Source: an uncultured Succinatimonas sp. (GTDB lineage: Bacteria; Pseudomonadota; Gammaproteobacteria; Enterobacterales; Succinivibrionaceae). Taken from it: a DNA stretch of 64,000 bases. A model generated the notes under the pieces. It saw only the letters and a program-made list of their open reading frames with translations. It was not told the DNA's origin and did no database searches. The stretch covers positions 286 through 64,285 of the forward strand of contig ONFP01000005.1 in the NCBI GenBank assembly GCA_900317105.1, given 5' to 3'. Position 1 is the stretch's first letter, and every line of letters begins with the position of its first letter. Shown here piece by piece: positions 17,710 to 22,127 of the stretch. A program made the position numbers and the translations under genes.

Positions 17710-18273
17710 ATGGTTATTAGCCCTCAGAATGATTGTACATGGACTTATCACGATGGTAAGTTAAGTATTAATCTGACAACAGATGAAGGTAAGTCCTATC
17801 TTTTCAAGACTAGGTATAACATCGAAGATTTGTTTGTTCGTCCAGACAGTAACAGTCAGTTCTGTATAGAAGATGCAAATTTATTGACTGACTACCAAGA
17901 TGGTTTGTATGAAATTTTAAAGAATGAAAGTTTTGCCCTTGATCTTGGACTTAATGCAGTAGCCTGTGAGAAGTTTACAAGACCAGCAGCTCCAACCAGC
18001 AGGTACTTTTTAGCTCTTGACCGTCCTGCTTTTGAGTTTGCAAGGGGAGATGTTGTAATACTTTATTCAAAAGCCGGTACAGCAGGATATTGCCTGGTTC
18101 TTGAGGAAAGAGATGCTGACGGTATGGTTAGACTGATGCTTCTTTCAGAGGAGCTGATCTTAGACAAGGAACAGAATAGAGGATATCAGATTGGAATGAT
18201 GATCAGAGTTTGTCCAGAGTGCATTGGTGATATTTATACTGGAACAAATGATCGTCGTGTTAGATACGCTTAA
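17710..18273 (+). CDS. zapC: Cell division protein ZapC-like
   Basis: W.Y..L..FKT..F.IEDA..L..A..F.RP..S..F pattern, right size, and position immediately after pyrD. Confidence 0.7.
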   Translation: MVISPQNDCTWTYHDGKLSINLTTDEGKSYLFKTRYNIEDLFVRPDSNSQFCIEDANLLTDYQDGLYEILKNESFALDLGLNAVACEKFTRPAAPTSRYFLALDRPAFEFARGDVVILYSKAGTAGYCLVLEERDADGMVRLMLLSEELILDKEQNRGYQIGMMIRVCPECIGDIYTGTNDRRVRYA

Positions 18274-19756: not shown

Positions 19757-20049
19757 GGAGTTAATACTGGAGTATATTTGATTATTTTTTGAGTGTTTAT
19801 TTAAGTATATTTTTTTGTTTTATGTTTTGCTTTCAGGGATGGGAATTCTCTCCCCTACCGTTCTGTTCAGAGGAGCTAATCTGTCTTTTGGGGATTGTTT
19901 TATCTTTTGATCGGATAAATTATGTTGGAGACATTTTAGAGTGGATCTTTTTTAATTAGAATATCTAAGGAATAGACTTTGGAAACAAGTGTAAACGGAG
20001 TTAATTAGCTAATTAATTTATTGCGAAGTCTTATTTGAGCTACTTAGGA
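19757..20049 (+). ncRNA. Candidate GGA-repeat (CsrB/RsmZ-like) RNA
   Basis: 13 GGA triplets, several in small hairpin loops. Upstream TTGAGT-17-TATAAA (19722-19750). Confidence 0.35.
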
Positions 20050-20050
20050 G

Positions 20051-20127
<77 letters not shown>

Positions 20128-20137
20128 ACTGAGGCAC

Positions 20138-20166
20138 ATTATAGGGATGTCACCCTTAGGTGTCAA
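20138..20166 (-). promoter_or_regulatory. Perfect sigma70 promoter of tRNA-Pro copy 1
   Basis: TTGACA-17-TATAAT with an upstream A-tract, 10 nt before the tRNA. Confidence 0.9.
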
Positions 20167-20611
20167 CTCTTTTTTTTGTTTTAATTTAAATTGAATAATA
20201 TATAGTTCAACTGAATATCTTATCTGACTTTTGGTGCTTATATCTTCTTATTATTGTTTTATGTCTCTTTCTTTTGTTTAAGTCTATACACCATGTATAT
20301 ATGTAGTATGTTTTGTTTTGATTTTGGGCGAAAACATCACTTAACTTAACTTTGAATACATCTTGTCGAGATTTCTTGAATATAACCGGTGCATTAAAGT
20401 TTGCTTATCTTTTGTAACTGATTCTCTAAGCTAATATAAATGAACTATTTTCTGGCGTTTCTAGACTCAGCCTTAATGAATATATTGTATTAAAATTATC
20501 GCGGTCCACTGATAAGAGGAACAACAAGTACAAATAGAGCTATTTTCTGATCTTAGTTTTTTAATAAGGAGAAATATGAGAAGGAGAAATGAGTTAGTGT
20601 GGTTACTTGAA

Positions 20612-20688
<77 letters not shown>

Positions 20689-20698
20689 ACTGAGACAC

Positions 20699-20727
20699 AT
20701 TATAGGGATCCGCCTCCTTTGTGTCAA
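20699..20727 (-). promoter_or_regulatory. Perfect sigma70 promoter of tRNA-Pro copy 2
   Basis: TTGACA-17-TATAAT with an upstream A-tract. The spacer differs from copy 1. Confidence 0.9.
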
Positions 20728-21033
20728 CTTTTTTTTTATGAATTTTGTTTTAAATTTATCTTTGAATTCAATTAAATAGCATATATATCCCATTTAAGAC
20801 GTTCTGCTGTTTATTAAAAAAATAAAAAATAATCAATAGATCTTTTTTTACTTTTCCTACTTTTATTCTTTCTTTTTCTGAAAATTTGATTCATCTCTTA
20901 ATTTAGTATGAAATTTCTTCCTATATTTAATATACAGTCACCTAAAATCGTAAGTGATAAAAATTATCAAAAAGTAATTTTTTTTAACTAATTGTTTTAT
21001 CGAAAAATTGTTAAAAAGTTAAAAAAAAAATTT

Positions 21034-21075
21034 TGAGAAATTGATCACAATTGATTTTTTGTGATATAGTTCACG
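21034..21075. promoter_or_regulatory. Tandem CRP-like sites overlapping an extended -10 promoter
   Basis: TGAGA-N6-TCACA (21034-49) and TGTGA-N6-TCACG (21060-75), each 9/10 to TGTGA-N6-TCACA. TG-A-TATAGT at 21062-70, TTGATC at 21041-46. Confidence 0.6.
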
Positions 21076-21135
21076 TACTCCTTATGTTTGTTTGATTGTT
21101 GTCCCCTGATAAATTCTTATTCAGGGGATTTTTCT
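21076..21135 (+). ncRNA. Candidate ~60-nt trans-acting sRNA with anti-SD and GU-rich seed
   Basis: Promoter, then UACUCCUUAUGUUUGUUUGAUUGUUG, then terminator TCCCCTGA/TCAGGGGA with TTTTT. Confidence 0.55.
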
Positions 21136-21299
21136 TTCTGGCCTCTTATTTTATTTTCTCCTCTTAATCTCACTTTTATTGTTAACCTTTTGACTATATT
21201 GTGTCTTTTGCTAAACTACTCTTAGTTTTGATCGTGAATATATTTTGCATAAGTTTTCGGTAGGTATAATGCTGAAAAATTGTATGGAGTCATAAGGTT

Positions 21300-22127
21300 A
21301 TGCAAATTTCTAACATAAAGAACTTAAAGAAGATTTCTCTTGTTGCAGCTTTCGCTATTTCCTCTGCATTTGTATTCAATGGATGTGCTGCTGTAATGGT
21401 AGGCGGTGCTGCTGCAGGTGCTGGCGCCTATATTGGTTCTGATAGTCGCACTGTTGATAAACAGGTTGATGATCAGAAGATTTCAAAGAATGTATTAAGT
21501 ATTCTGAGAAATGATGCAACCAGATCTGACTATAAGGTTTTCCGTGTTGACTGTGTTGTCTTGAATGGTAATGTACTTCTTGTTGGTGAAACTCAGGATA
21601 GAGAATATCTTTCTGAATGTCTTGAAAAGATCAAGCATGTTAAGAATGTTAGAAGAATCTTTAACTGTGTAGAAAATATTCCTCCTGTATCTTCAGGTAC
21701 AGTTGCTTCTGATGCCTATATAACCTCCAAGGTTAAGAGTCTGCTGCTGTTTGGTTCAAAGATCAGTTCAGGCAGATTTAAGGTATATACAGAAAATTCT
21801 GTTGTATATATGATGGGTTATGTAACTCGCAATGAGGCTCAGAGAGCAATCAATCAGGCTCGTAAGGTTGACGGTGTAAAGAAGATTCATCCTATTTTTG
21901 ATTACATGGATGAGACAGGAACTCCTAATTCATCAGACGGTGCTCCTGTTGTTGGAGGAGAATCAGCAGGAACTTCATCTGCAGCCTCTCTGAGTTCATC
22001 AAACGAATATCCTCAAAGCTCATCTTCAATGGCTGCAGAGGTTCAGGGAAATGTTGATAATGGCGGAGCTGTGCTTGAAGAGGATGAGAATCTGTTAGCT
22101 CCAAGTGCTCCTGCTCAAGGCTTCTAA
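21300..22127 (+). CDS. Dual-BON-domain lipoprotein (DolP/YraP-like) with Ser-rich tail
   Basis: Lipobox (FNG-C), two BON repeats (VDD..I..V..LVGE; DAYITSKVKS..V..EN.VVY.MG). Confidence 0.85.
   Translation: MQISNIKNLKKISLVAAFAISSAFVFNGCAAVMVGGAAAGAGAYIGSDSRTVDKQVDDQKISKNVLSILRNDATRSDYKVFRVDCVVLNGNVLLVGETQDREYLSECLEKIKHVKNVRRIFNCVENIPPVSSGTVASDAYITSKVKSLLLFGSKISSGRFKVYTENSVVYMMGYVTRNEAQRAINQARKVDGVKKIHPIFDYMDETGTPNSSDGAPVVGGESAGTSSAASLSSSNEYPQSSSSMAAEVQGNVDNGGAVLEEDENLLAPSAPAQGF

Follow-up and report, generated by a model that had tools for sequence, protein, structure and literature searches.

Spot 42 and CRP are reportedly joined in a feed-forward logic, as set out by Beisel and Storz in 2011. 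Spot 42 is an Hfq small RNA (sRNA) that is repressed by cyclic AMP (cAMP) and CRP, and silences secondary carbon uptake and catabolism (PMC8916003). GcvB directs a GU-rich seed against CA-rich enhancers upstream of the Shine-Dalgarno (SD) sequences of transporter genes (PMC4474525), and CyaR is a short, CRP-activated Hfq-type sRNA with an anti-SD seed carried in a hairpin loop. Sponge RNAs are also known, with SroC and AgvB acting on GcvB (PMC4474525; AgvB/SroC also in bioRxiv 10.1101/2021.04.25.441314), and CrfA acting on the siblings SisA-D in Caulobacter (PMC12559287). The 64000-nt stretch of DNA analysed here (the window) corresponds to contig C80 of a genome of 2.79 Mb and 39.8% G+C. At 21034-21136 (+) it includes a small transcription unit that is complete but has no coding gene, and that is made up of a promoter, a 25-nt unfolded 5' end and a terminator. 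The predicted transcript was named sRNA-A. Gene anatomy, conservation, covariation, complementarity and motif enrichment were computed from the sequence, and we hold with high confidence that the unit is a real sRNA gene. It very probably represents a new sRNA family, of a known kind, that is specific to the Succinivibrionaceae.

sRNA-A resembles Spot 42 as a predicted small Hfq-type base-pairing RNA, with CRP sites placed for repression and with uptake and catabolism genes as its predicted targets. The Spot 42 covariance model (RF00021) gave no match up to E = 10 in 20980-21200 and none genome-wide. Spot 42 is encoded between polA and engB (yihA), whereas sRNA-A lies between tRNA-Pro and a gene for a BON-domain lipoprotein, and synteny with the BON gene is kept in other genera. 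sRNA-A is also half the size of Spot 42, has one 5'-terminal seed where Spot 42 has three internal ones, and includes no SpfP-like open reading frame (ORF).

The GcvB arrangement, a GU-rich seed facing CA-rich enhancers of transporter genes, was found in silico for sRNA-A. However, sRNA-A is about 57 nt in length, compared with about 200 nt for GcvB, its seed is fused to a 5'-terminal anti-SD block, and it has no gcvA neighbour; its upstream side has no adjoining ORF, tRNA-Pro and the BON gene being the closest features. No link to amino-acid metabolism, as for GcvB, was shown for sRNA-A. With CyaR, it shares an anti-SD seed (CCUCCUUA-like), a link to CRP and the form of a short Hfq-type sRNA, but the boxes in its promoter predict repression rather than activation, and its seed is at the 5' end rather than in a loop. 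Neither the GcvB (RF00022) nor the CyaR (RF00112) covariance model matched in the region or the genome. By analogy, sRNA-A would pair like a fusion of CyaR (anti-SD) and GcvB (GU-rich) and work like Spot 42, while being a member of none of the three families.

Nothing on post-transcriptional control in the Succinivibrionaceae was found in the literature, and the texts that name Succinivibrio together with sRNA concern other topics, as judged by their titles and abstracts. The Succinivibrionaceae are abundant succinate producers in the rumen and gut, including those of low-methane ruminants and non-industrial human guts. sRNA-A would be the first well-supported sRNA of this family. Its regulatory input (cAMP-CRP) can be tested, its 19-nt seed is defined, and a small set of carbon-uptake targets and a likely natural antagonist can be named. 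As the genome has no matches to the Spot 42, GcvB and CyaR models, sRNA-A may fill their niche, which would represent convergent evolution of catabolite-linked riboregulation.

The sRNA-A gene, its conservation and its promoter

A model's sequence-only reading of the window had proposed a self-contained sRNA gene at this position, and the extended -10 element, the sequence of the proposed short transcript, the GC stem and the U-tract that it described were all found where it had placed them (Table 1). A promoter scan gave an 18-nt spacer between the -35 and -10 elements, and the predicted start, A21077, is 7 nt past the -10 hexamer. The first 25 nt of the transcript, ACUCCUUAUGUUUGUUUGAUUGUUG, were unfolded in the fold prediction. 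The hairpin (arms 21101-21109 and 21121-21129, with G-C at 5 of 9 bp) is followed by UUUUUCUUU, and its energy of -15.7 kcal/mol (z = -3.6) was equalled by 1 of 200 shuffled sequences. The sequence features expected of an Hfq-type trans-acting sRNA, namely its own promoter, a single-stranded conserved seed and a Rho-independent terminator with a U tail, are all present.

The covariance model of sRNA-A, for which 46 distinct sequences were used, found a match in 60 of the 98 Succinivibrionaceae genomes, representing 9 of 17 genera and including 41 of the 43 genomes of the genus Succinivibrio; the 144 genomes searched from 30 other families of this order gave no match. BLAST searches recovered sRNA-A in 22 of 24, then in 40 of 43, genomes of the genus, and between species the island from promoter to terminator alone was conserved, the flanking spacer having diverged. 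When 185,579 species were scanned for the exact 19-mer of the seed, full units with seed and terminator were found only in records named for the Succinivibrionaceae or Aeromonadales or in seemingly mislabelled bins; the names attached to exact-pattern matches were Succinivibrio, Succinatimonas, Anaerobiospirillum, Avisuccinivibrio and Succinivibrionaceae. The remaining exact 19-mer matches outside the family were single and on the reverse strand, and several read as leader sites (in the 5' untranslated region, UTR) in unrelated taxa. The closest relatives of the window's genome were S. dextrinosolvens strains, and the window belongs to a Succinivibrio of the dextrinosolvens group. In Rfam 15, with gathering thresholds, only tRNAs passed and no family reached its threshold at sRNA-A. 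RsaE, the best other match when permissive E-values were also allowed, was considered as an identity and rejected, as it scored 30.7 bits against a threshold of 79 and the alignment ran through the promoter.

Among the 46 distinct sequences, which come from at least 8 genera, 18 of the 19 seed columns (nt 1-19) are invariant and C2 is at least 90% conserved, while the BON protein encoded next door drops to 37-68% identity across the orthologous loci. On the upstream side, the closest features are two tRNA-Pro genes on the opposite strand, and the last + strand ORF of at least 120 aa ends at 18273, about 2.8 kb away, leaving the hairpin without a nearby gene to terminate. In every promoter examined among the 52 seed-plus-terminator units, a -10-like hexamer (TATAGT, TATAAT, TATATT, TATTAT, TAATAT or CATAAT) ends exactly 6 nt before ACUCC, indicating that the start is fixed and that the seed is at the very 5' end.

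Per-sequence folding of every copy gave 23-28 unpaired nt, a hairpin of 5-13 contiguous pairs and a U-tract, and the orthologues (46 distinct sequences) are 51-69 nt long with the 8-nt tail included. In the model-guided alignment, 7 of the 8 modelled stem pairs have changed on both sides, and hairpin covariation was 0.405, compared with 0.158 in shuffles (0 of 500 reached 0.405) and no more than 0.149 with partners slid. RNAalifold found no structure on a MAFFT alignment because the loops differ in length and the stems are misaligned, and per-sequence folding and the model-guided alignment were used instead. Conservation, the fixed spacing from -10 to +1 and the covarying hairpin thus support, in silico, the self-contained gene that had been proposed, with a predicted transcript of about 57-60 nt.

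In most genera, sRNA-A and the BON gene share a strand, with sRNA-A 220-2900 nt upstream. Paired stand-alone sRNA-A genes were seen in some genera (L131, G060:C78; L132, G059:C161; L241, G063:C4). Two of the pairs, with their genes 1.3 kb and 570 nt apart, are on one strand, and every copy in these two has its own promoter; the genes of the third pair are about 0.5 kb apart and on opposite strands.

The two CRP-like boxes that had been reported over the promoter are present, with their cores 26 bp apart, and the box at -9.5 recurs in orthologous promoters. It was found at exactly this position with no more than one mismatch in 20 of 43 distinct orthologous promoters (6 perfect), from Succinivibrio and the genera g19 and g22, and its half-sites persist while the -10 spacer varies (TATAGT, TATACT, TATTCT, TATTAT or TATAAT). 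A site with no more than two mismatches is located at -34.5 to -36.5 in 21 of the 43. Genome-wide, 77 CRP cores with no more than one mismatch were counted (68 of them with one mismatch), and 55 of the 77 are intergenic, compared with 22% of the genome, indicating that the E. coli-type CRP motif is evidently used here. Among the proteins encoded in the genome is a CRP equivalog that scores 371 bits (cut-off 266) and has a recognition helix, RETVGRILKM, identical to that of E. coli; a gene for the class I adenylate cyclase CyaA and two Hfq genes are also present. With each of its core elements (-35 and -10) enclosed in a CRP-type site, the promoter should be shut off by cAMP-CRP, and we place moderate confidence in CRP repression of sRNA-A in Succinivibrio. 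An FNR reading of box 1 (TTGAT-N4-ATCAA) was dropped as a poor match. The GATC inside the conserved TGATCA at the -35 element (21042-21047) is a possible Dam methylation site.

Table 1. Coordinates of the sRNA-A unit, its neighbours and the sibling seed copies (positions in the window unless a contig is given)
Feature	Position	Strand	Basis or remark
CRP-like box 1, TGAGAAATTGATCACA, 9/10 of TGTGA-N6-TCACA	21034..21049	+	Centre -35.5, overlaps -35 element
-35 hexamer TTGATC	21041..21046	+	Part of conserved TGATCACA, includes GATC; promoter scan and alignment
CRP-like box 2, TGTGATATAGTTCACG, 9/10 of TGTGA-N6-TCACA	21060..21075	+	Centre -9.5, -10 hexamer forms the 6-bp spacer
Extended -10 element TGaTATAGT	21062..21070	+	Promoter scan
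Predicted transcript sRNA-A, about 57-60 nt	21077..21136	+	Covariance model match, 75.6 bits, E = 1e-14
Seed nt 1-19, ACUCCUUAUGUUUGUUUGA, anti-SD part and GU-rich part	21077..21095	+	Conservation, motif enrichment
Single-stranded linker UUGUU, variable, joins seed to terminator	21096..21100	+	Alignment, folds
Terminator hairpin, 9 bp, 11-nt loop	21101..21129	+	Fold, covariation
U-rich tail UUUUUCUUUC	21129..21138	+	Termination signal, likely Hfq-binding 3' end; T-tract kept in all orthologues
tRNA-Pro(UGG), upstream neighbour	20612..20688	-	Opposite strand to sRNA-A
BON-domain lipoprotein gene, syntenic downstream neighbour	21300..22127	+	Pfam BON; context, outside the RNA
Sibling copy behind flagellin	C140:1828-1878	+	Starts 5 nt past flagellin stop codon
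Sibling copy	C15:517-567	+	About 185 nt past small gene
Sibling copy	C108:7961-8018	-	About 80 nt downstream of prophage lysozyme gene

Complementarity of the seed to translation starts

Ten-mers complementary to the seed region occur 212 times in the genome, and 51 of these occurrences (24%) are in start-codon zones (-40 to +3), which, on crude gene calls, make up 1.8% of the sequence. The complements are thus enriched about 13-fold at translation starts, and the corresponding share in the controls was 4.7% on the wrong strand and 4.2% for k-mers read backwards. For CA-rich complements without the SD part (UCAAACAAAC to ACAAACAUAA), 29-39% of occurrences are in start-codon zones, and for 10-mers complementary to nt 16-25 there were none (0 of 12 and 0 of 16). 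The part of sRNA-A with an enriched complement coincides with the invariant nt 1-19. The earlier description of the seed as an anti-SD block joined to a GU-rich stretch agrees with this enrichment of its complement at CA-rich translation-initiation regions, and it is quite probable, from these patterns of complementarity, that sRNA-A acts by pairing at ribosome-binding sites.

The seed-complement motif is carried by 21 genes, mostly for transporters. They include genes for CstA, a GntP permease, a four-carbon-acid sugar kinase, two TRAP DctP binding proteins, two Peripla_BP_4 sugar-binding proteins, a CitMHS transporter and an amino-acid permease. In the Succinivibrio lineages examined, an ACAAACA...UAAGGAGU arrangement is preserved in the leader of cstA (-16.8 to -21 kcal/mol), and in one species this leader has a perfect 25-bp seed site (-34.2 kcal/mol). 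Whole-leader perfect matches to the seed, of 20-25 nt, were seen in single species at G094:C8:9749-9780 (L058, L220) and G020:C88:31131 (L111), the genes concerned being cstA in G094 and one for a large lipoprotein in S. dextrinosolvens DSM 3072. Their confinement to single species suggests quick gain and loss of target sites.

Duplex energies of the seed were computed against 2349 crude translation-start regions, 64 of which reached -18 kcal/mol. At -20 kcal/mol or lower, 22 start regions were found with the real seed, compared with 16 ±4 with shuffled seeds that preserve the anti-SD part. The two targets named in the sequence-only reading were not supported. The clpP leader (-16.6 kcal/mol) ranked 135 of 2349, a value equalled by shuffled seeds that keep the anti-SD part, and its upstream half, ACAACAAT, is altered even in strains with ClpP 98-100% identical, the genus-wide range being -8 to -18 kcal/mol. 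The match at the mscL ribosome-binding site is a generic 8-nt SD-type match, and the window has five such TAAGGAGU-type sites.

A gene for a Metallophos phosphoesterase (G000:C166:49655 (+)) has in its start region AAACAUAAGG, which is complementary to the seed (-15.7 kcal/mol). By its N-terminus, this protein may be the cAMP phosphodiesterase CpdA and, if so, cAMP feedback would be possible.

RNA-B and the sibling seed copies

Outside the window, a perfect 21-nt complement of the seed was found on two other contigs (C156:39707-39731 and C134:4279-4303). Each is part of a unit, named RNA-B (G000:C156:39680-39790 (+) and G000:C134:4230-4330 (-)), that is convergent to prmC and not in a leader. 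Behind its TATAAT promoter, RNA-B has a 5' part that varies, a single-stranded core (UCAAACAAACAUAAGGA, then U or A) and a covarying hairpin of lineage-specific sequence that is followed by a T-tract on the RNA-B strand only. It was seen by inspection in 14 Succinivibrio genomes, has a predicted length of 58-80 nt, and would form a duplex with sRNA-A of 19-24 contiguous bp (-26.6 to -35.4 kcal/mol). The extended complementarity to the seed that is expected of a sponge was found in the 14 genomes. The SD-like part of RNA-B is weakened, to AAGGAU or AAGGAA, no conserved ORF was found in RNA-B, and neither RNA-B nor the sibling seed copies described below matched Rfam. We consider it somewhat likely, from this complementarity, that RNA-B is a sponge for sRNA-A.

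An FNR-type box (TTGNN-N4-ATCAA, with 1-3 mismatches) begins 35-36 nt upstream of the RNA-B -10 hexamer, with its centre near -41, in every lineage compared (L022, L117, L124, L128, L129, L168 and L170). A fragment of a regulator gene encoding an FNR-type E--SR recognition helix is located at a contig end (G000:C198:8-274). The prmC/RNA-B region is present in the assembly in two diverged copies (C156 and C134). As the C134 copy is identical to the relative G011 over the stretches compared, this may reflect a strain mixture (contamination estimate 2.29%) and not a true duplication.

The covariance model also matched seed-plus-terminator modules without a suitably placed promoter (Table 1). The copy linked to flagellin is also found in three related genomes (G084, G020 and G011; L237, L242 and L244), 2-6 nt past the stop codon, and may be an sRNA derived from the 3' UTR. 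S. dextrinosolvens DSM 3072 has all three elements, namely sRNA-A, RNA-B and the sibling behind flagellin. The small gene before the C15 copy encodes a protein weakly similar, below the Pfam cut-off, to a type III secretion needle protein, and in a relative's genome a seed copy is located 8 nt past a hydrolase gene. The block around the C108 copy is prophage-like by eye, with holin-like, VRR-NUC-like and lysozyme-like ORFs. These sibling copies resemble sRNAs released from mRNA 3' ends such as DapZ, a GcvB seed look-alike whose seed copies are likewise embedded in mRNA 3' ends (PMC9438474). The complementary second small RNA, the sibling copies in 3' UTRs and the family-wide distribution are all absent from the sequence-only reading.

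As in known sponge circuits (CrfA/SisA-D, AgvB, SroC and the chb decoy of ChiX), the target site is present in extended form on an RNA of its own and several siblings share one seed, and a link to carbon status in the sRNA-A/RNA-B pair recalls CrfA. Unlike the known sponges, RNA-B is a candidate stand-alone chromosomal gene of unrelated sequence, recognised from sequence alone, with a perfect 19-24-nt match in a transcript of 58-80 nt, and its promoter has an FNR-type box rather than being a carbon-starvation promoter. A stand-alone sRNA with a stand-alone perfect decoy and 3' UTR siblings would extend the sponge circuits shown to matter in Caulobacter (PMC12559287).

Proposed mechanism and rival explanations

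From the anatomy of these units we infer transcription, CRP repression, Hfq dependence, translational repression and sponging, in the following way. sRNA-A would be transcribed from a sigma-70 promoter starting at A21077, which cAMP-CRP would shut off, and would form a minimal module of about 25 unstructured nt and a Rho-independent terminator that probably doubles as the Hfq-binding end. Its seed (nt 1-19), which mimics the 16S rRNA 3' tail (ACUCCUUA) and runs on into a GU-rich stretch, would pair with the SD sequence and with the CA-rich enhancer just upstream of it, and would keep 30S ribosomes off a set of mRNAs that serve mostly the uptake and catabolism of carbon sources. The predicted targets are cstA genus-wide and, in this strain, the TRAP and ABC binding proteins, the GntP permease and the sugar-acid kinase. 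At low cAMP, sRNA-A would be made and the uptake of secondary nutrients silenced, and at high cAMP it would be off. RNA-B, which displays a perfect 19-24-nt copy of the target site, would probably titrate sRNA-A as a sponge. Taken as a whole, an independent gene for a trans-acting base-pairing sRNA that is repressed by CRP, blocks ribosome-binding sites and is opposed by the sponge RNA-B is considered probable.

Several points weigh against this explanation. The complementarity of cstA ends at the genus boundary, with -7 to -17 kcal/mol in other genera; the sugar-acid kinase leader, which was tried as a wide target (-23 to -29 kcal/mol), was rejected as it is confined to the dextrinosolvens group, and no target conserved across all genera was found among the candidates compared. 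As shuffled seeds that keep the anti-SD part do equally well, energy ranks alone are not evidence, and the motif enrichment, being computed on crude gene calls, could partly reflect a general CA-rich enhancer. The promoters of Anaerobiospirillum and g21 have no CRP boxes, only plain TTGACA or TTGCAA, a 17-nt spacer and TATAAT, and CRP control is therefore lineage-specific at best. The sign of the CRP effect, likely repression, is read from box position alone, and the transcription of sRNA-A, its start site and its 3' end are predictions. At the stringency used, about a third of the genus Succinivibrio had RNA-B, which was seen in no other genus.

The roles of the two RNAs could also be reversed or symmetrical, with RNA-B as an effector that titrates ribosomes or a protein, or pairs with GU-rich sites, and sRNA-A and its siblings as antagonists, or with the two RNAs forming a mutual annihilation switch with few mRNA targets. 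The sRNA-A:RNA-B duplex (19-24 bp) is far longer than any conserved mRNA match, a pan-family mRNA target was not found, and the RNA-B promoter looks regulated, with its FNR-type box in every lineage. However, sRNA-A is found in 9 genera and RNA-B in one genus so far, a difference in range that means that RNA-B cannot explain the invariance of the seed. The strong enrichment of the seed complement at translation starts also argues against reversed roles, as does the weakened SD of RNA-B (AAGGAU or AAGGAA), which is expected of a decoy, and this explanation is considered unlikely.

It is more unlikely still that the unit works in cis, as a 5' leader or attenuator of the BON-lipoprotein operon, in which the hairpin would terminate transcription in a regulated way and some factor would be sensed by the conserved 5' end. 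Such a leader would be expected to sit, as this unit does across genera, immediately before the BON gene and orf545 on their strand, but the BON gene is anywhere from about 220 to 2900 nt away, and the stretch between it and the terminator includes a -10-like TATAAT. Alternative anti-terminator pairing is impossible in the unstructured 5' end, the BON start region has no complementarity to the seed that is conserved across genera, and the seed-plus-terminator module is also found behind flagellin, hydrolase and prophage lysozyme genes and in tandem copies. A dual-function or coding RNA appears highly improbable. Here, the mini-ORF AUG UUU GUU UGA (Met-Phe-Val; 21084-21095) would yield a tiny peptide or its translation would be under selection, and the invariant columns do stop at A19, the final base of UGA; Spot 42 is also a precedent for a base-pairing sRNA that encodes a small protein (PMC8916003). 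However, the mini-ORF has no SD, its AUG is only 7 nt from the 5' end and not terminal, its stop is not kept in the sibling copies and a three-residue product is implausible, while the enrichment at start regions explains the conservation better. Promoter-like sites are no commoner in this region than in shuffles (7 compared with 7.6 expected), as would be the case if a promoter-like and a terminator-like sequence had met by chance in an AT-rich spacer with no functional gene. A 19-nt block with essentially no change amid diverging flanks and neighbouring proteins, the fixed register from -10 to +1, the compensatory changes in the stem and the family-wide distribution speak against chance, which appears the least credible of the explanations and effectively refuted by conservation.

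Within the preferred explanation of a CRP-repressed sRNA opposed by a sponge, a wider two-RNA switch can be proposed only tentatively, in which CRP-repressed sRNA-A, an FNR-type-activated decoy RNA-B and seeds released from flagellin, other and prophage 3' ends would act together. If true, this switch would merge two global signals at the RNA level, and, through the seed copies at 3' ends, motility and possibly phage gene expression would be tied to the sRNA-A regulon.

Upstream of sRNA-A in the window, the tRNA-Pro(UGG) unit is present in two copies (20048-20176 and 20609-20737) of 129 nt that are 91% identical and 561 nt apart. Both copies are behind a perfect minus-strand promoter (TTGACA, 17-nt spacer, TATAAT).

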